Positions 9,070-60,801 of a stretch of 64,000 bases of DNA are shown one piece after another. Position 1 is the first letter of the stretch, and each line of letters opens with the position of its first letter. The stretch spans positions 259,160,001-259,224,000 of the forward strand of contig OZ024743.1 in the NCBI GenBank assembly GCA_964016885.1, given 5' to 3'. Under the pieces are notes generated by a model. It was not told the origin of the DNA. It did no database searches and saw nothing but the letters and a program-made list of their open reading frames with translations. Made by a program: the position numbers and the translations under genes. The DNA comes from Eledone cirrhosa (taxonomy: Eukaryota).

Positions 9070-11075
9070 CATACTTACACACATACACATTCATACACAC
9101 ACACATATATATATATATACATATGCGTGTATGTGTATATATATAAACACATACACACTCAACATATCTAGTCTTCTTGAAAGTTAGGTCTCCAGTTTGG
9201 GAGGTACATTATGCCTCACTATATTCTGATGTATTAATTCGGGAGCCGGAATTAGGGATTCCAGTTGCACCTTACATTTTGGTACCTTGAGGAAATTTCA
9301 CAAAACGACTTCCGTTTTGCGAAATCAGCTCTAATTAATAGTCAACTATGTTGATAGTTTATTATCAATATTAGAGATATCTGTGTATTACATGTTGTAA
9401 GTCGTGTCTAATTGATGCACAAGGTCAGCAATTTTATTGGAGGGGAAATTCAATTATATCGATTCCAGTACTTGACTTGTATTTTATTTTATCGACCAAG
9501 AAAGGAGCAAAGGAGAAGTTGAGCACAGCGATTTAAACTGATCACATGCTATTAATACACCTATTTATTACTAAATCCTTTTATTTCAGTCTAAAGGCTA
9601 AGAGTGTACAGCACTAGTATCTAGGAAATATAAACATAAAACATAAAATGATCCGTTATTCAGCATTCAAGAAGTTTCATTCATAGAATTTTCTAGAGTG
9701 ATATATATCAGGGTGATCGATTAAATCTGATTGTACCTTTATTTGATTAATCTCGCTGCAAGTTCCAGAGGAATCTGTCGTCATGTTTATATTCAATATT
9801 CCATAGTAACTCTCTTCATTTATTTTAATATCCTGATAAAATCTTTTTCCATGTTTTTCACATAGATCACATACATTTTCATGGGGGTGATCAAAGTGAG
9901 TGCAGAATTAATGGACAGTGGTAGTCATTTTAGAACCAAACTTATTAACATTAAAGAACAGGTCCTTTACTGATTCAGCATAGTTATCTGTCTTATGGTT
10001 ACCCAAAATGTTTTGACAGCTAGAACAAAGTACATTACCATGTTACTTGATACATTGTCGCCAGTCCTATTCAACGTTCCGGACCTTAAACATAAATATT
10101 TTCTTCTCTGCTTTATTTGTTTTTGTGGCTGAAATAAATACATTGGATGGAAAGGGAATCAGTATAGAACTATGTCGAAAATATACATATAAACTGACGA
10201 TGAGATACTGGACAAATAATATTACAAACATCTTAGTACAAAATTTCTGATATTGCATTTGTTGTTAAAGAAACAAATGAATGTGCTATAATCGATTTCC
10301 TAAACATGGAGGGCACAATATTGAAAATTAAAACAAAAGCAAGAAACAACAAAAGCAAAACAACTACAAAAAACAGTGAATATAAAGTAACAAAATTCAA
10401 AAGAGAAACAACTTGAGATACGTAATCAGAACTTTGGGTTAAATAAAACTCTCAAGGATTTGAAGAAGGTCAAGTGTTATTCTCATTAGAGTCGGAACAG
10501 ATGGCTTTAAGCATAAAAAGGCTTCCATTCTACTTCAAACAACTTTAAATAAAACCAAACGTCACCATCATTAAAAAAATAATCTACACTGATTGGAACA
10601 GTTAATATGTTTAGAATGAACGTGGATTGGCAAGATCGATAGAGTGTCAGACAAAATACATGTGTAATATTAATATTTCATTAGGGCATTTCACGTTCTG
10701 ATTTCGAAATACTTCAAGTTTAACTGTGCTGTAAGCACTTTAACATCCTGTAATGATTTAGCAATATATATATATATATATATATAAAAACAAATAACGA
10801 AACGAAATCAAACTTCGTTTCGCTTCTAACTCACTTTTGTATGACTGACGCTTAAACAATTAAGTTAAAGTGTACATCTACATATGTATACGGAAGTATT
10901 AGTATGCATATAAATACACACATGTATACATATGTACATGTACTCAGCTTTTCACTAGACACTTTACAGTGAGTGTCAGCTAGTCTGTATGTAACCACAC
11001 AGGCGGACCGGGTTTTAGAGTCATACGAGTTTTCAAGGAAACACATTTCCTCTATTCTCCAGAGGGCCAGACAGG

Positions 11076-11120
11076 AATATTGGACTAGTTTCGATGTTAT
11101 TACATCTCATCAGCAATATT
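11076..11120 (-). ncRNA. Type I hammerhead ribozyme (family A, inverted arm)
   Basis: Exact reverse complement of 11274-11318. Confidence 0.9.
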
Positions 11121-11273
11121 TACCCATCTTCCGGCTTCTCTGGAGAATTGTAAAAGCACATATCGTTATATGCTTTTTCTATGCAAATTGGTCTACCCAC
11201 TACTAATTTTCATAGAAAAAGCATATAACGATATGTGCTTTTACAATTCTCCAGAGAAGCCGGAAGATGGGTA

Positions 11274-11318
11274 AATATTGCTGATGAGATGTAATAACAT
11301 CGAAACTAGTCCAATATT
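11274..11318 (+). ncRNA. Type I hammerhead ribozyme (family A)
   Basis: aatattg-CTGATGA-gatgt(aata)acatc-GAAA-ctagt-C-caatatt: 7-bp stem I, 5-bp stem II, palindromic ACTAGT stem III, GUC cleavage triplet. Confidence 0.92.
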
Positions 11319-11742
11319 CCTGTCTGGCCCTCTGGAGAATAGAGGAAATGTGTTTCCTTGAAAACTCGTATGACTCTAAAACCCGGTCCGCCTGTGTGGT
11401 TACATACAGACTAGCTGACACTCACTGTAAAGTGTCTAGTGAAAAGCTGAGTACATGTACATATGTATACATGTGTGTATTTATATGCATACTAATACTT
11501 CCGTATACATATGTAGATGTACACTTTAACTTAATTGTTTAAGCGTCAGTCATACAAAAGTGAGTTAGAAGGGAAACGAAGTTTGATTTCGTTTCGTTAT
11601 TTGTTTTTATCGTTTCCGCTGAACCGGTGCGTACAATGACTCACGTTCTATGCAAATTGGTCTACCCACTACTAATTTTCATAGAAAAAGCATATAACGA
11701 TATGTGCTTTTACAATTCTCCAGAGAAGCCGGAAGATGGGTA

Positions 11743-11787
11743 AATATTGCTGATGAGATGTAATAACATCGAAACTAGTCCAATATT
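11743..11787 (+). ncRNA. Type I hammerhead ribozyme (family A, second tandem copy)
   Basis: Identical to 11274-11318, exactly 469 nt downstream. Confidence 0.92.
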
Positions 11788-12005
11788 CCTGTCTGGCCCT
11801 CTGGAGAATAGAGGAAATGTGTTTCCTTGAAAACTCGTATGACTCTAAAACCCGGTCCGCCTGTGTGGTTACATACAGACTAGCTGACACTCACTGTAAA
11901 GTGTCTAGTGAAAAGCTGAGTACATGTACATATGTATACATGTGTGTATTTATATGCATACTAATACTTCCGTATACATATGTAGATGTACACTTTAACT
12001 TAATT

Positions 12006-12036
<31 letters not shown>

Positions 12037-12578: not shown

Positions 12579-13409
12579 TAGCTTGATTGGGTACTCGCTG
12601 CCTTAACGCTACATCTGTTACTACATAATGGCATTGACAAAATTACTCAGAATAAGAGCAGAGAAGAAGAGTCTTTTCCGCAATACATATTAACAATATT
12701 AGTAATACGATAGGATAATTAATTACTGTTGTCCAAAACCACATATTTAAAGAAAGAGATGAGATTGTTTGAAACTCATTGCCCTTCAAGTATATATTGA
12801 AATGAGAAATAAAATTGCGTGCGTTGATGGTATAAAATGGCTGAGACTAACGGTTAATATGGAGCTCATTTCTTACTTTGTAGCGATTGCTAAGCCAGAA
12901 CATAATGCTTTGACTGTAATGAGGTCTGAGTAATACGGAGTAAAGTTGAAGCTAGCCACTGACTCAATCAGCTATCTGCGTTTGATACGTTTGGGAAGCC
13001 ATTTTGCTTTCACAGCTAATATTCTTGTAAAAACCGGGAACATCCAAATTTACGAAGAGATCAACCAAAATTAAACAACTGTTGCCGAAATATCAGGTAC
13101 TAGTCAAAATACGTTATTGACCGATTTGACCCGAAACGATTTCCTATTGATTAAGTTGCAGTTACTTCTAATGTGATAACATAATGATTAGTATATATAG
13201 AACATTTTATAGTGAAGTAGATAAAATATGAATATTTGATACTTCTAACCAAAACCTCTTTGTTGAAACCGTTCATTAAAACAGTCTATTCGGGCTGCAT
13301 TGAAATTTCTAAAAATAGTTATACTCTCAATAACTGTGAAATCACTGCAATCGAAAAGTTTCAGATTATGTTAGGCTACTGTAATTCTCAACAGTCCCAT
13401 ATCTAGAAT

Positions 13410-15020
13410 AAAGCTGATGTTTATTGATGTCAATATAAGGATATATCTACAGCTGACGTTTATTGATCAATCTAGTGACATATCTTCATCTGGTGTTTAT
13501 TGATGTCAATATAAGGATATATCTGCAGCTGACGTTTATTGATCAATCTAGTGACATTTCTTCATCTGTTGTTTATTGATGTCAACATAGCGACTTATAG
13601 ATGTCAACATAGCGACATATCTACAGCTGTTATAGATGTCAACATAGTGCCATATCAACAGCTGTTTATAGATGTAAACATAGCGACATATCTACAGTTG
13701 TTTATAGATGTCAACATAGCGACATATATCTACAGCTGTTATAGATGTCAACATAGCGACATATCTACAGTTGTTTATAGATGTCAACATAGCGACATAT
13801 CTACAGCTGTTATAGATGTCAACATAGCGACATATCTACAGTTGTTTATAGATGTCAACATAGCGACATATCTACAGTTGTTATAGATGTCAACATAGCG
13901 ACATATCTACAGCTGTTATAGATGTCAACATAGCGACATATCTACAGTTGTTTATAGATGTCAACATAGCGACATATCTACAGCTGTTGTAGATGTCAAC
14001 ATAGCGACATATCTACAGCTGTTATAGATGTCAACATAGCGACATATCTACAGTTGTTTATAGATGTCAACATAGCGACATATCTACAGCTGTTATAGAT
14101 GTCAACATACCGACATATCTACAGTTGTTTATAGATGTCAACATAGCGACATATCTACAGTTGTTTATAGATGTCAACATAGCGACATATCTACAGCTGT
14201 TATAGATGTCAACATAGCGACATATCTACAGCTGTTATAGATGTCAACATAGCGACATATCTACAGATGTTATAGATGTCAACATAGCGACATATCTACA
14301 GTTGTTTATAGATGTCAACATAGCGACATATCTACAGTTGTTTATAGATGTCAACGTAGCGACATATCTACAGTTGTTTATAGATGTCAACATAGCGACA
14401 TATCTACAGTTGTTTATAGATGTCAACATAGTGACATATCTACAGTTGTTTATAGATGTCAACGTAGCGACATATCTACAGTTGTTTATAGATGTCAACA
14501 TAGCGACATATCTACAGTTGTTTATAAATGTCAACATAGTGACATATCTACAGTTGTTTATAGATGTCAACGTAGCGACATATCTACAGCTGTTATAGAT
14601 GTCAACATAGCGACATATCTAAAGATGTTATAGATGTCAACATAGCGACATATCTACAGATGTTATAGATGTCAACATAGCGACATATCTACAGATGTTA
14701 TAGATGTCAACATAGCGACATATCTACAGATAATACCCATTCATGTCAATATAGCAACCTATCTGCAATGCAGATGATTAATGTGTATTGATGTCAATTA
14801 TAGTGACATATCTACAGCTGGTGTTTATTGATGTCCATATAGCGACATATTTACAGCTAATGTCCATTCATGTCTATATAAGGACATATCTACAGCTGAT
14901 GTTTATTGATGTCAATATAACGTCATATCTACGGTTGATGTCCAGGATGTCAATAAATCGATATATCTACAGCTGATGTTTATTGATGCCAATATAACGT
15001 CATATCTATAGTTGATAATC
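13410..15020. repeat. 35/36-bp minisatellite; homogeneous core about 13595-14730 with degenerate flanks
   Basis: Unit tagatgtcaacatagcgacatatctacag(ttgttta/ctgtta), about 30 copies with no spacers. Confidence 0.95.
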
Positions 15021-15099
15021 ATTAACGATTATTTCTTCAATGAATTGATTGATGTTTATTTGTTCGGGAAATTACCACTTTTTAATCATTAATTCCAAA

Positions 15100-15510
15100 A
15101 CATCGTAAAAGTACTGCTTTAATTAAGTCTGGTTTGAATCCCGGAATGTCCGGATTTAATTAAATATTTTAAATCACGGAATGTACTACTTTTAATAATG
15201 TGTAGTTTAAACTCTGAAATGTTCTGATTTAATTAAGTGTAGTTTAAAACATTGAAATTCAGATTTAATTAAGTGCAATTTAAAACATTGAATTTCTTAT
15301 TTAATTAATTGTAGTTTAAACAACGGAATACTTTGACTTAATTAGTTTTAGTTTAAACCACGGAATGTCCTGTTTTAATTAAGAGTATTTTAAACTGGAA
15401 AATGTCCTGCTTTAATTAAGTGTAGATTAAACCACGGAACGTCACTTTTTTTAATTTAATGCAGTTTAAACCACGGAATGTTCCGATTTAATTACGTGTA
15501 GTTTAAATGT
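15100..15510. repeat. Degenerate tandem repeat of about 37 bp
   Basis: Recurring ttaattaagtgtagtttaaaccacggaatgt variants. Confidence 0.8.
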
Positions 15511-15819
15511 TCTACAGAACTATTTAGAAAAATCCCTCAGAACGTGATAATGGCAATCAAAATTTACTAGTGTGTTAAATATTTCTTGCAAACAAAATAA
15601 GCAAAATATTTATGTGATAAGCAAACGAAAATATCTCCAATCAGAGTTGTTGAAGATGTGATTAAAAATTAATGTTGTAGAACACGTAATATATTGTGAA
15701 GGGAAAACAGCTGGCAGATTCCCTTCCGTTTTCGAGGTATGATCATAGGCCTCCATCTGTTTCGATAATGAATGTTCCATTTTTTTTTCATCAACAGAAT
15801 AGCCTCTTCGAGGAATATC

Positions 15820-16160: not shown

Positions 16161-16789
16161 CCTGCATTTATGACTGGAAATGATAAGTTTAACGAGGAGC
16201 AGAGTCTATGTCAGTCAGAATCTTATCTACCTAGAAATTGATCCATTATACTTGGATGAGTATCTAGCATGTTAGGCTAGCTTTGATTCATGCGCAACCT
16301 TCTCCTAATTATGCTCCCCATTTCCCCAAATAAAATAATTTCAGTTTACAGTTTGCCAAGCTGAAAAACCTAGCTTGTGATACTTCCGACCACACTAAAA
16401 AATTTACAAATCTTGCAGTTTCACTTTTAAGTCCACACTCATACCAAATCCTATGACATATCATAAGACTCTCTCCTCCGTTGATAGAGGTTCACGCTTT
16501 GATTACCTATTATCAATTATCATATATACCGAATCGGGTTTAGAAGATCAGCAAATTATTCTCTCCACCTTGCGAGGATGCACCTTTCTGAAGAGAGGAG
16601 AACCCCAGATGCACTCCTGATAGCACGTGTGGAGGAGGACTTATTATTACGAAGTCGGCGGATGATCTGCCTGAACACTTTATTTGCTGATCAGAAGTCG
16701 GATTCCAGCTTAAACCCAAAGTCCTCACATGTGTTACGTTTGCCCGCCTTTACTGTCTCTGCTGCGATTCTCATGCCTGGATCTCTGGA

Positions 16790-17760
16790 AAGGCAATGGC
16801 AATCGGGAGTGACAATTCCAAAGTTTAAAAAGGGAGACAAGAGATATTGCTTCAATTATAGAGGGATCGCCTTGTTAAGCCTCCCCGGTAAAGTCTACGC
16901 TAAGTGTCTGGCAAAACAATGTAGGGAGATTCTCGAGTCCAAGCTAGCTGATGAACAGAGTGGTATTCGCTCCGGACGCGGCACAGCCGACCAACTATTC
17001 ACAATGTGGTAGGTTTTTTGATAAATCGTGGAAGTATTGCGAAGATGTATATCCTTGCTTTGTAGACATTGAAAATGCTTATGACCTGCCGTGGAATGTT
17101 CTACAGGAGTATGGAATTGTACGTCAGTGTCATGTTGTCCTGATGTCTCTATATACGAATGTCCGAATATTTGTGTTCGGATAAATGGTGCTAAATCGAA
17201 ACCATTCAACGTGGGAGTCGGACTCCGTCTAAGTTGCGTACTATCACCTCTCCTCTTCATTATCTTTATGAACAGGATTGACATGCACAGCCGGATTGGA
17301 AGTGATATCACGACTAGCAAGTGTGGAATCAGTCGGCTAAAAATTGCAGATGACGTGGTATTACTAAACTCGACAGGTGATCTCCGACTTGCACTTGATG
17401 GATTTGATGCTGTGTACCGCATAGCTGGAAAGAAAATTAGTGCTGCGTAAACTGAGACACTCGTCCTCCCAAGGAAGCCTACGCAGTGCACTTTACATGT
17501 GAATGGAGTTCCACTGAAGCAGGCAGAGAAGTTTAAGTATCTTGGAGCCGTGTTCACGAGTGATGGAAGACAGAAGGCTGAATTAAGTTCAAGAATTGCA
17601 GGAGTTGGAGCAGTAATGCGCCAGCTTCAGCATTCAGTAATCAGAAGGGAGGTAGGTGTAAAAGACAAACTCGCTATCTTCAATTCGGTATTCGTGTCAG
17701 CTCTTCCCTATGGTCATAAAAATTGGGTAATAGCCGAACGAATACGATCGCGAATACAGT
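16790..17760 (+). mobile_element. Decayed RTE-clade LINE RT region
   Basis: FKKGDKRYCFNYRGIALLSLPGKVY..EQSGIRSGRGTADQLF..FVDIENAYD..GLRLSCVLSPLLF..ADDVVLL..FKYLG across three frames. Confidence 0.9.
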
Positions 17761-17763
17761 ACC

Positions 17764-19115
17764 CATCATCATCATCAGGTCGAGCTTACTCGGCTTTCTA
17801 CGACACGTTTCCTCCATCCATCTCTGTCTTTCATAGCGTTTGCCAGTTCTTCCGCAGTGCATCCAGTATCGTCTTCAAGTTGCATGACGTATGTCTTCTT
17901 GGGACGACCAGCGTTTCTTGCTCCATAACAACACATCACCTGCTATTTCTTCCTTGCTGCGCCAACAGTGGCCAGCAAATCTGAGTCTCTGTCCACGTAT
18001 TGACCTGCTGATAGGTGGTATATTGCCATAGAGATCCTTATTTGTTGGGTGTTCCCTCCAAGACACGTTTAAAGCAGCGCGGAGCATACGTGTGTATGCC
18101 CCGTCTAGCTTTTTCTCCAGTTCCGACGTTAGCGTCCAAGTGATAGAGCCATAAAGAAGCACAGATTCCACAGCAGCTCTGAAGAAATTCCTTTTCACTT
18201 TGGCCGGCAGGTTTGATTTCCATATCTTTTCCATTGCATTCGATGCTCCCCAGGCTTTTCCCAGTCTGATGTTAACATTATGTTCTGTGGAGGCGATACA
18301 GCTACCCAGGTATTTGAAGTCGTCAACTTGCTTGATTATATCGCCGTTTAGACTTCGCATACCAACTGAGGAGTCTTGGTTCAGGCAAATATATTCTGTT
18401 TTGCCTGCGTTGACATAGAGTCCGATTTCCTTTGCAACTGATTCGATGCTGTGAAGTAGTGATGTTGCATCCTTAAGGTAGTCAGCGAGGACCGCTAAAT
18501 CATCCGCATAGTCAGCATCGGTGATTTTCTGAGCTGCATAGCGTCTACATTTTCGCTTTGTGAGAGTGAACCCAAGCTCTACGTTTTCGTCCAGGGCTTT
18601 TCTCAATCCATAGTCGAGGCAGATGATAAAAATATATGGTACAAGAGTATCCCCTTGGAGTACTCCTGCAATGATGTCAAAGAAGTTGGTATCTCCATCA
18701 GGTGAGCGCACCATTGCGTGGGTATTTTTATATAACATCATGATGGCATTTACTGTTTCCTTTGGCAAGCCGTAGGCTAGAAGTATCTCTCTCATCCTCC
18801 AACGATGGATGGAATCGAATGCTTTTGAAAAGTCAATAAACAGGAGAGTTGCTGGGAGGTTTTTGACTATTACGCCTTCCAAGATACGCCGAATAGTAAG
18901 TATTTGCCCTGATGTTGATCTGTTGGTGCGGAAGCCATTTTTGTTTTTTCTCAGCAAGGGGTCAATGACAGGTCTAATTCTGTCAAAAAGCATGAGATTG
19001 TATATCTTTGCGGCAATTGCCATTAGAGTTATGCCACGGTAGTTTTTAGCCATTCCAAGATCGCCCTTTTTTTGAAAAGGGAGTATACATCCCTCAGTCC
19101 ATTTGTCTTTCAGGA
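17764..19115 (-). mobile_element. 5'-truncated RTE/RTEX-like LINE with largely open RT frame and (GAT)n tail
   Basis: KKGDLG..NYRGITL..GFRTNRST..FIDFSKAFDSI..GVLQGDTL..YADDL..FKYLGS; minus strand ends ...ctcgacctgatgatgatgatg, abutting the + strand LINE tail to tail. Confidence 0.92.
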
Positions 19116-19214
19116 CACACTGAAATGAATGTTTGAGGACTCTGCCCCCACGACCATCAAGGGAATAAGTAGGTGAAGAAGAATATAAGAAGATAGATAC
19201 CGAAATATGTATGA

Positions 19215-19259
<45 letters not shown>

Positions 19260-19266
19260 CGCCCCC

Positions 19267-19302
<36 letters not shown>

Positions 19303-19629
19303 GAAAAATTCGGGACCCCGACGGCTGAGCTCCGTTCGGATCTAGCTGTCGAAACGGCCGGAGCTCAGCCGTTGGGGTCCTGAATCTTTTCATATAACCC
19401 ACTCTACTACCCCAAGTATCGAGTACTCTGGTGCGTTATGGTCCACCTGGTACCTTACCACACCCTCTTTGTTATATATATAAAGTATATTTGTGTGAAT
19501 GTGCGTGTATGCAGACACATGTATAGACACATAACTTCACAGAGTTATACACACAAAATATCGAGAAAACCAAAGAATAAAGAGATCATTGAAATAGATA
19601 GCAGTATGTTATATATTTATCTTACATAT

Positions 19630-37224: not shown

Positions 37225-38565
37225 TCATGTGTGAGAGACTTCTTTCATTTCAATATTTTGCAAGTCGGGTTTTTCAAGCTTTTCTTCGCTGGAGTCATCT
37301 AAGTTCGATGACGTCAACATTGATCTAAGGCTTGGGCTATCTATAGACACATGAGATATACAATGTGAATGTTCACTCGGTTTAGAAACGTCACTGGCGA
37401 TATCAGAGTTATTTTCACTAATATTTGAATTATCATGAATACCACTCTGGCTGCTGTGAGGTTGAGGAGAATTCGAACAACCAGAGCATACTGTGTTCAC
37501 CGAAGGACGACGACTATCTGGTGCATCGACTTGATGTACTGAAGCCATGTGAACGATAACAACAGGTAGGCTATCATTGGAATCTCCTTCACTCATCGGT
37601 CTGTTCGGATGAACGCAAAGATATTGCGTATTAGGTGTAACGTTCTCAGCAGTTTCATCGACCCGCAATTCATCATCTTGTTCATAAGCGGGATTTATAA
37701 TGCCAGTTGACACACTACATACACTACTCGATACTACCGAGGCCCTCCGCATAGCATCACTACTTCGTGTCAATCTGAAGTCATCAAAGGCAACATTATT
37801 TGATTTTCGTCTCGTATAAGAAACATGTGATAGAAAAGCTGACGATAGCGCATTATGAAACGGTTTGATGTTTGGCATTGAATATGCTTTATTGGCTATT
37901 TCTGAACTTTTAATAGGATGCGTTACCATCGAACTACGACGAGATGAGGCTGGGAAAGTTATTTTATAGGCTGTTTCTTTCACTCCACTACTTTCTCTTA
38001 AATTTGTGCACACATTTGAATCGGAACTGCTTGTCAGTTCATTTGAGTTAATGCTTTTTACTGCCATTTGTTGGAAAGGCAGTTGTATTCCACGAAAATA
38101 ATTTTTTCTAAAGCTCTCTACCACCAACTCATAAATGGCTTCTTTTTTTAAACTACGAATCCGGATTTCGTCTTCAACCCTTAAATATTTGTCCCTAAAT
38201 TCACAATACATTACACAGGAAACTATTACCATAAAAGCTCCCATAGCCATAATTGGAGGTCCGACATACGCTAACACTTTTAAGTGGATATTTCGAGGTG
38301 GTTCCGGTGGTTTCACTGGTAATCGAATACTTTGAGATAAAATAGATGATTCCGGGTAATATCCTAAGATGCTCATTGCTATTCCACCGACTGATATCAA
38401 CGAGCCAATAAGTGTACCGATCAATGTTGGCAAAAGGCAAGGGATGTTTATAAAATCTGCAATTTTAAAAGGCCGGCGTACTTTTCGTTTCGGTCTTCGG
38501 CGTCTAGAACTGAATACAGGATGGTCAGTATCATTATAATGAAGCCGTACGCGAGGGACGAACAT
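37225..38565 (-). CDS. TMEM200: TMEM200-family (DUF2371-like) two-pass membrane protein, 446 aa, single coding exon
   Basis: Long non-repetitive ORF. Basic N-terminal stretch (RRRRPKRKVRR), TM1 ending GIAMSILGYYP and TM2 LAYVGPPIMAMGAFMVIVSCVMYCEFRDK resemble the TMEM200 motifs GIAMAVLGYWP and GPLIMGIGIF..C...HENRDK. A long Ser-rich tail follows. Confidence 0.85.
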   Translation of the reverse strand: MFVPRVRLHYNDTDHPVFSSRRRRPKRKVRRPFKIADFINIPCLLPTLIGTLIGSLISVGGIAMSILGYYPESSILSQSIRLPVKPPEPPRNIHLKVLAYVGPPIMAMGAFMVIVSCVMYCEFRDKYLRVEDEIRIRSLKKEAIYELVVESFRKNYFRGIQLPFQQMAVKSINSNELTSSSDSNVCTNLRESSGVKETAYKITFPASSRRSSMVTHPIKSSEIANKAYSMPNIKPFHNALSSAFLSHVSYTRRKSNNVAFDDFRLTRSSDAMRRASVVSSSVCSVSTGIINPAYEQDDELRVDETAENVTPNTQYLCVHPNRPMSEGDSNDSLPVVIVHMASVHQVDAPDSRRPSVNTVCSGCSNSPQPHSSQSGIHDNSNISENNSDIASDVSKPSEHSHCISHVSIDSPSLRSMLTSSNLDDSSEEKLEKPDLQNIEMKEVSHT

Positions 38566-39438
38566 TTTATTTCAGATTAGAGCCAGACTGTATTAGTTAT
38601 TTATGATTTTGTTCGTTACAGATACTCCCAAGCAGAATAATTCTCACTTATTGGGCTGCTTGTTTTCATTTTGATATACATTAAATGATTTTCACTTGAA
38701 AATGTTGCAGTTTTGTGAATTTACACAATTAACCTGATAATCTGATAATTTTATGAACAGCTTGAATTTAGCACCAACATTTAAGTGGATGAAAATGTGG
38801 CATGCGATGCCAATTGCTTTTTTCCTTCTTTTTTCATTTAACGAGGATTACTTTAAGAATTCATAGAAATCAGGAAGAATAGTTGCAAGTAGACAAGATA
38901 TAGTAATCGTAATAGCAGAAATAATATACATTTCTGATAATTATAATTCTGCAAAGAATCTGTCTTCATTATTTCATTTTTAAGAAGCATCGTTTTAATA
39001 ATATTTTTTGGTTGAAAAATTAAGTAATTTACAAATGCAAAATAATATATATAGCAACTTAAGATCCCTTTCTAAATGAAAGAATGAAAGCGGACATAAT
39101 TTAAGCAAGTGTGCATTTATGCAATTATTTCTGTGCAAATGTTCGTGGACAATTTGTAGATGCTTGATAGAATTGCGAACACATTGGTAATTAAATCAGT
39201 CGAATGTTGTAGATAGATGTAGGAGTTAGTTAATTACCCAATAGCATCTAGTAGTTCACCGACCGAGTCAATTACTGACAAATTATACGTTGATTGAGAG
39301 CATTTAACTTAGCTACAATGACTTCACAAGATATAAGTGACTATCACATTATACAGATCCATGGATAACAATTATTGATGGTGGCAGTTTAACGTTCGTA
39401 ATGACGAATATGTGATTTATAATTTTCCCGTCGACATT

Positions 39439-60541: not shown

Positions 60542-60655
60542 GAAGTTATGTTTAATTTGTTGGGATTCAACAAGCTTAAAAGTTTTATCCAGCGAACCTT
60601 CAATCGTCAAGGTTGTTTTTCTACGGGTATGTCAACATTTATAAAACATATTTTG

Positions 60656-60720
60656 TATTTTATCTGATGAAAGCGCACCAAAATTGCGTTGGTTGCCCTT
60701 GAAATATATATAATAAAATA
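60656..60720 (+). ncRNA. Type I hammerhead ribozyme motif
   Basis: tattttat-CTGATGA-aagcgcaccaa(aattgcg)ttggttgccctt-GAAA-tatatat-A-ataaaata: 8-bp stem I and an imperfect long stem II. Confidence 0.75.
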
Positions 60721-60760
60721 ATTATTGTTTTATAAATATAGTTTCCATTTATTAATATAT

Positions 60761-60801
<41 letters not shown>

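Follow-up and report, generated by a model that had tools for sequence, protein, structure and literature searches.

Structure of the insertion in the window

The window, i.e., the whole 64-kb stretch of Eledone cirrhosa DNA analyzed in this work, carries between two (AT)n microsatellites an insertion composed of an inverted and a direct arm of one 469-nt monomer. Its features are the following (the evidence used for each is given in brackets):

10764..10783, no strand: (AT)n microsatellite, left target flank (sequence)
10784..11192, minus strand: inverted arm, monomer positions 26-434, whose outward end is the "long" end (434) (sequence comparison)
11069..11131, minus strand: hammerhead copy within the inverted arm, with cleavage predicted after 11083 (motif scan)
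11177..11217, plus strand: central inversion junction (sequence comparison, fold)
11177..11645, plus strand: direct unit 1 (positions 1-469), which serves as the 469-nt reference monomer (sequence comparison)
11269..11321, plus strand: type I hammerhead 1, predicted cleavage 11311/11312 (motif scan, covariation)
11312..11780, plus strand: RNA of unit length expected from cleavage at both sites (prediction only)
11542..11610, plus strand: "tail" of 69 nt by which the long end (434) exceeds the short one (365) (ends across loci, fold)
11646..12010, plus strand: direct unit 2, positions 1-365, whose outward end is the "short" end (sequence comparison)
11738..11790, plus strand: type I hammerhead 2, predicted cleavage 11780/11781 (motif scan)
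12011..12036, no strand: (AT)n microsatellite, right target flank (sequence)

Segments 11177-11541 and 11646-12010 are identical (0 mismatches over 365 nt, offset 469) and, since only these 365 nt are repeated at that offset, the direct arm comprises 1.78 units and not two full ones. The inverted arms (10784-11192 and 11202-11610) span 409 nt with 3 mismatches and overlap by 16 nt (11177-11192) at the centre, inside a hairpin native to the monomer, in which the ATGCAAAT octamer (11181-11188) lies too. Scanning the 64-kb window for the motif on either strand yielded five hammerhead-like matches, three of which are the motif of this repeat, with cleavage predicted after 11311 and 11780 on the plus strand and after 11083 on the minus strand. 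The motif scan and the 365-nt identity are in agreement with the first-pass annotation of this DNA, which had recognized three nearly identical hammerhead copies, two of them direct and 469 nt apart. No ORF of at least 120 aa overlaps 10784-12010. The fold-back of about 400 bp that had been annotated does exist as an inverted arm of 409 nt, but the family-wide comparison reported below identifies it as the scar of an insertion and not as a functional RNA hairpin.

The window also harbors minisatellites with 35-39-nt units (13391-15050 and 15080-15525), a 488-codon frame with an RT domain (17875-19341, minus strand, Pfam RVT_1) that is unrelated to the insertion and, beside it, broken RT-like frames (16503-17984, plus strand); we take both sets of RT frames to be LINE-type. 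A 448-codon frame matching DUF2371 (37225-38571, minus strand) is probably a host exon.

The hammerhead and the monomer RNA

Hammerhead 1 has a bulged stem I, the CUGAUGA core, a 4-bp stem II, and GAAA, and its stem III, with the palindromic ACUAGU, consists of 2 bp around a palindromic loop; an Rfam scan of the window returned nothing at the gathering threshold. Among 14 hammerhead variants drawn from the main family, an older subfamily, and a sister family, stems I and II stay paired via double changes at 6 of the 16 pairs, and the core is invariant. The covariation score was reached by none of 500 shuffles, a significance that is inflated by the relatedness of the sequences. Judging from the sequences, the ribozyme is maintained under selection. 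As for the weak palindromic stem III, dimer cleavage has been reported for stems of this type (PMC7229834), which are reported to be cleaved efficiently in the dimeric form only; of nine frog retrozyme dimers, only one was cleaved (bioRxiv 10.64898/2026.07.22.740005).

The monomer RNA (11312-11780) folds far better than its shuffles, both as a linear molecule (z -9.4) and as a circle (z -10.6 against 40 shuffles), and its predicted fold is closed and branched, with the ends paired via stem I. In the predicted fold of a transcript of the whole insertion, the pairing of the hammerhead 1 stems is 0.0, against 0.86-1.0 without the inverted arm, which is predicted to bury hammerhead 1 fully in the 409-bp stem. 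Thus, release of the 469-mer at this locus would be expected only from a transcript starting inside 11193-11262. The ATGCAAAT octamer, found at 11181-11188 and 11650-11657 and kept in both sister families, is a possible snRNA-type internal promoter element; it may instead be merely a part of the conserved hairpin.

Size and variants of the family

The exact 32-nt hammerhead core occurs 1,456 times in the genome searched (3.0 Gb, 1,796 contigs), against 0 for the reversed control, and the long end followed by TATAT occurs at 2,239 junctions genome-wide, the older subfamily included (control 0). The search with the monomer gave 384 matches within the best 37 of 724 candidates. Among the sequencing runs listed for the monomer, 7 entries from 4 studies contained part of it, and none of the runs listed was an RNA run. 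The first-pass annotation had proposed that the genomic copies be counted, and the 1,456 exact cores reveal a high-copy repeat. It had also regarded the insertion as recent; the young units sampled differ by 0.21% substitutions, four subfamily markers excluded, which supports this view. Attachment of the other copies to an RT/GIY-YIG ORF, which would have spoken against the annotation, is not the rule: of 60 unselected loci, 2 have a matching piece of ORF next to the repeat, and there it forms a separate arm.

Other variants of the repeat were also observed. A sister family of about 500 nt (L106:8560-10000, L056:3300-3900, and loci L090, L107, and L130) exhibits the same core and the ACUAGU stem III; its stems carry compensatory changes, and it has the octamer hairpin as well as a stretch of (TA)n inside the unit. 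An older subfamily, recognized by marker 55C, forms long arrays on both arms at many loci, with up to at least 27 units (e.g., G000 C2:123.83 Mb, C7:76.66 Mb, and C12:2.68 Mb). Lastly, positions 60650-60770 of the window contain a type I hammerhead-like motif that differs from that of the repeat: its stem III has a TATATA loop, and a (TA)n junction comes after it. This motif likely represents another family of the same kind, and motifs resembling it are also present in L101, L104, L106, and L114.

Anatomy of the insertions across the family

The organization of the insertions was compared in two sets of loci. The first one included 35 loci from the best-scoring matches plus the window (36 in all) and is biased toward long young arrays; for this reason a second, unselected set was taken, for which the first 60 entries in the list of long-end sites of contig C1 were used. 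In the first set, 26 of the 36 loci are two-armed, the arms being placed head-to-head with the tails directed into the (TA)n outside; the remaining 10 either have a single arm or are chimeric. In all 26 two-armed loci (24 of which are independent), one arm ends at monomer positions 432-434 and the other one at 359-366. In the second set, the far side is a short end followed by TA at 38 of the 60 sites (two of them duplicates), and at none of the 60 is the opposite end a second retrozyme long end; a 5' end or a micro-arm is joined to TA at 11 sites, other sequence is found at 7, and 4 run off the fetched stretch. At least two hammerheads on the same strand are present at 28 of these 60 sites. 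The target is (TA)n, inside whose pure repeats a target-site duplication is unreadable, and no empty site was observed. An arrangement of this kind, in which the arms are head-to-head and a long end stands opposite a short one, is the signature described as "inverted pLTR plus tail" in Penelope-like elements. The tail of the window insertion (11542..11610) contains a 10-bp hairpin (11573-11595), and we infer that it is the region of protein binding and priming.

Palindromes beside microsatellites are hard to assemble, and the inversion or the duplication might in principle represent an assembly artefact. However, dozens of loci with distinct junctions follow one end rule, the duplicates L031/L034/L035 and L151/L152 have identical junctions, and older diverged subfamilies exhibit the same layout; the artefact is thereby left with hardly any credibility, on an argument that is drawn from recurrence at other loci.

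The same data bear on the possibility of an element moving at the DNA level, that is, a TA-targeting foldback or MITE-like transposon, or a satellite, whose hammerhead would be a relic and whose units would change by unequal exchange only. The window alone, with its 340-409-bp inverted ends in TA, might suggest such an element, and the unit number does vary between duplicates, with periodic variants (L031/L034/L035, L052). Nevertheless, each end has a fixed position of its own, 69-74 nt from the other, and the two never coincide; the inner junctions differ at every locus and the arms are variably truncated from the inside; moreover, chimeras with RT-encoding elements and compensatory changes of the ribozyme do occur. 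We consider this scenario very improbable.

The inner ends of the arms were located at 56 central junctions, 24 of them from the first set and 32 from the second. These ends are scattered round the monomer, and 2 of the 112 fall at 131-141 against 2.6 expected. Four of the 56 junction rows, miscalled because of an internal palindrome, were dropped; among the remaining 52, 29 overlap by 1-8 nt, 8 are blunt, 12 carry filler, and 3, including that of the window, lie inside hairpins with a 16-23-nt overlap. Near-palindromic junctions number 13 of 52, against about 7 expected. At positions 128-143, none of the 162 passages of the arms over the cleavage site (34 loci) shows an indel; the number of passages is inflated by DNA-level expansions (L031, L052). 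Since the arms cross this site without stopping, the template was continuous, and the reverse transcription of a continuous RNA that had been proposed earlier fits the family as a whole.

The inversion might instead originate from a single cDNA that folds back at a hairpin and primes itself, the endonuclease cutting the second end at a fixed site, as has been proposed for rotifer Penelope elements (PMC3846280). Such a mechanism would account for the location of the window's junction in a native hairpin and for the 14 of 56 junctions whose two inner ends lie no more than 30 nt apart (P 0.011, against 7.3 expected), and several junctions are exactly palindromic. On the other hand, 39 of the 52 junctions join unrelated positions and short overlaps of 1-8 nt prevail (29/52), the longer arm can carry either end type, and two internal RT start sites have been mapped in vitro for a related element (PMC11167929), so that this origin appears improbable.

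Penelope-type elements and chimeric insertions

Penelope-like elements have been named as candidate movers of retrozymes (PMC7229834), and their co-occurrence and terminal homology with retrozymes have been reported (Li, Clavereau and Pollet, bioRxiv 10.64898/2026.07.22.740005). Elements of this type are present in the genome. A GIY-YIG search, in which the best 150 of 10,596 candidates were scored and 50 loci were examined, revealed several families encoding an RT plus, at the C terminus, a GIY-YIG domain, with a CX4CxxC linker. This linker is a mark of Neptune/Nematis (PMC8557442), and the clade label that we apply to the helper candidates is a provisional one, given by this motif and not by a tree. 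The autonomous elements L101 and L111 show inverted arms with one long and one short end, and they lie in (TA)n. Within the small sample of 50 GIY-YIG loci, no sequence homology to the monomer was found, the homology search matching only neighboring retrozyme insertions. The length of the tail was also considered as a means of recognizing the partner, but the values of about 65, 45, and 40 nt estimated by eye in three families single out none. Two long frames of the Neptune/Nematis type, read from stop to stop, are candidate helpers: L096:4308-7121 (minus strand, 938 codons) and L098:1274-4561 (plus strand, 1,096 codons).

Among the 95 retrozyme loci fetched, three chimeras (L138, L168, and L065) were found, in each of which a retrozyme arm is joined directly to an outward-pointing arm of such a Penelope-like element inside a single pair of TA flanks. 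In L138, the element arm (94.8% identical to L108 over 1,290 nt) contains part of the ORF and finishes with a short end and TA, the retrozyme arm finishing with a long end and TA, so that the one-long/one-short rule is obeyed. L168 and L065 contain element termini only, 96-99% identical to autonomous copies and joined without TA; both are long plus long, and thus two of the three good chimeras break the end rule. The partners in the chimeric insertions belong to different families. In our interpretation, the chimeras arose when reverse transcription switched between RNAs that depend on the same enzymes, deletion between neighboring insertions being the alternative. Two further loci, L032 and L117, were set aside as weak candidates, showing a decayed element and TA filler or no TA end, and they may be deletions. 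Other composite loci were also observed: in L056, retrozymes of three types follow one another head to tail, and a different hammerhead family forms the end of L055.

Circular or linear template

A further question concerns the form of the RNA that is copied. For a Penelope-like protein studied in vitro, the nicking and extension of both strands and two internal RT starts bounding the tail have been reported, the protein being a predicted dimer that uses uncleaved RNA and does not need the hammerhead (PMC11167929). It is thus possible, and a serious competitor of the circle although less likely in our opinion, that the same Penelope-type machinery and priming sites act on uncleaved linear multimers from long tandem loci, the hammerhead and the circle being by-products. 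Several observations are in favor of this possibility. Three of the five candidate private variants that were counted genome-wide turned out to be subfamily markers: 41G (53 copies in 11 loci, one of them a 28-mer), 55C (189 copies, the first 100 of which lie in 11 loci), and 165G (29 copies in 12 loci). Homogeneous long source arrays, such as the 28-mer, do therefore exist. Moreover, 55C loci are consistently long and 165G loci short, so that array length looks heritable and tracks the subfamily, which fits linear read-through better. To this should be added that uncleaved RNA is the dominant substrate in vitro (PMC11167929), that stem III is weak, and that in L057 two marked units are followed by an unmarked one; the marker in question, 310C, is one of the two locus-private variants, with 4 genome copies, all in L057, where it marks 4 of 5 units and is absent from the innermost one.

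The other private variant points in the opposite direction. The deletion at 165 has exactly 10 genome copies, which are all the 10 covering units on both arms of L064. A circle explains this finding in a simple way, whereas a linear template needs a homogenized source array that is missing from the assembly. Subfamily markers are likewise homogeneous within loci (405A/409A in 33 of 33 and 14A in 33 of 34), in keeping with a bottleneck of one unit. The strong conservation of the ribozyme and of the closed monomer fold is also at variance with a linear template. On this basis we lean slightly toward a template that would be circular rather than an uncleaved multimer.

The number of units is not a direct measure of the process. 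One insertion is present in three duplicates, L031, L034, and L035, with 11.6, 1.6, and 1.6 units in one arm, respectively (L151 and L152, in turn, are segmental duplicates of a single insertion), and periodic variants are found in L031 and L052; arrays therefore also change at the DNA level. Hence, of the earlier idea that head-to-tail units are the trace left by reverse transcription, the continuous template stands, but the unit number cannot be read as a pure record.

A possible model for the spread of the repeat

On the whole, we propose that the insertion is a young member of a high-copy, ORF-free hammerhead repeat, likely a non-autonomous retrozyme copied by a Neptune/Nematis-type Penelope-like protein, likely from a circular 469-nt RNA. 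To this proposal, taken with all its parts, we assign an even chance; its parts fare differently, in that the repeat very probably belongs to the retrozyme class and in all likelihood is moved by Penelope-type machinery. According to this model, the tandem locus would be transcribed, the two hammerheads would cleave as a dimer, and the monomer would be ligated to form a circle. A borrowed RT/GIY-YIG protein would then bind the tail region and nick both strands of the (TA)n run, and reverse transcription would be primed at two internal sites (432-434 and 359-366), one for each DNA end; the double nicking and the two priming sites are inferred from the family-wide ends and from the in vitro data (PMC11167929). 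Each cDNA would run backward through the cleavage junction for a variable length, from 0.1 to several units, as the pattern of the arms indicates, and the two cDNAs would be joined centrally through short stretches of microhomology, in some cases within a native hairpin (the window being an example), giving the inverted layout seen in the pattern of the junctions. Arrays would later change their length by DNA-level exchange, as the duplicated insertions have done.

A more specific form of this model is, in our view, tentative: a viroid-sized ribozyme circle might parasitize several Neptune-type proteins in trans by structure alone, a single protein dimer priming twice on one circle, on either side of the tail hairpin, and producing two opposite multimeric cDNAs. 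If twin priming on one circle is true, then the genome would be a fossil record of twin rolling-circle reverse transcription, and the chimeric insertions would name the helper enzymes.

The insertion anatomy and the chimeras are direct genomic evidence for a partnership between retrozymes and Penelope-like elements that has so far been proposed. Two questions, namely which machinery mobilizes animal retrozymes and whether it copies the circle, become directly testable, given that this family offers two priming sites predicted at base level, a defined target, candidate helper ORFs, and chimeric insertions, with about two thousand young to older copies usable for statistics. The class itself is known already, and the layout may be general but unreported.

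Comparison with known systems

Non-LTR retrozymes have been defined, and their circles shown in coral, mussel, and axolotl, by Cervera and de la Pena in 2020 (PMC7229834). The repeat of E. cirrhosa exhibits short head-to-tail repeats, no protein-coding capacity, many dispersed copies, and autonomous Penelope-like elements in the same genome, which are features of a non-LTR retrozyme, and from its sequence it appears to be a real, young member of this known class, behaving in the manner of a Penelope-like element that is non-autonomous. No octopus-type retrozyme was found in the literature searched, mostly of open-access coverage, and the same literature, in the portions available, gave no account of a two-armed tailed layout or of chimeras in retrozymes, although supplements may show such insertions. 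Likewise, word searches of the main texts of PMC7229834, PMC7761336, and bioRxiv 10.64898/2026.07.22.740005 revealed neither arms in inverted orientation nor tails, target sites, or chimeras.

In common with animal non-LTR retrozymes, the repeat has head-to-tail non-coding units with one type I hammerhead each, a low GC content, arrays from dimers to long multimers, a self-paired monomer, and co-occurring Penelope-like elements; the weak palindromic stem III is shared with the axolotl HHR_Amex1. The monomer of 469 nt is above the 170-400 nt given in PMC7229834 and within the 51-972 bp of bioRxiv 10.64898/2026.07.22.740005. The retrozymes of PMC7229834 are expressed as circles, whereas the circle of the E. 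cirrhosa repeat is a predicted one.

Penelope-like elements have been described with inverted arms, a 30-40-bp tail on one end, and microsatellite targets, and ORF-free head-to-tail derivatives of them are known (PMC8557442, PMC3846280). The repeat resembles the EN+ ones (Neptune/Nematis) in the head-to-head arms, the tail at one end, the variable 5' truncation, the microsatellite target, and the hammerhead placed upstream of the ends. It differs from them in that the retrozyme insertion has no RT/GIY-YIG ORF, in the canonical three-stem hammerhead (minimal in the elements), and in the tail of 69-74 nt, against the 30-40 nt reported and the 40-65 nt estimated by eye in the autonomous families of this genome; in addition, no sampled autonomous terminus is homologous to the repeat. 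The Chlamys non-autonomous elements, such as MRC1, are likewise ORF-free, multicopy, and head-to-tail, with a Penelope-like partner, but they have 3' sequence in common with that partner and belong to a clade without canonical hammerheads (PMC8557442).

In contrast with a MITE or a foldback transposon, the repeat lacks identical fixed terminal inverted repeats, its ends being different and its arms variable. Tandem hammerhead units are shared with newt satellite 2 and the schistosome satellite repeats. Newt satellite 2 uses an internal snRNA-type promoter (PMC2220036); the E. cirrhosa repeat has a conserved octamer, which lies also within a conserved hairpin.
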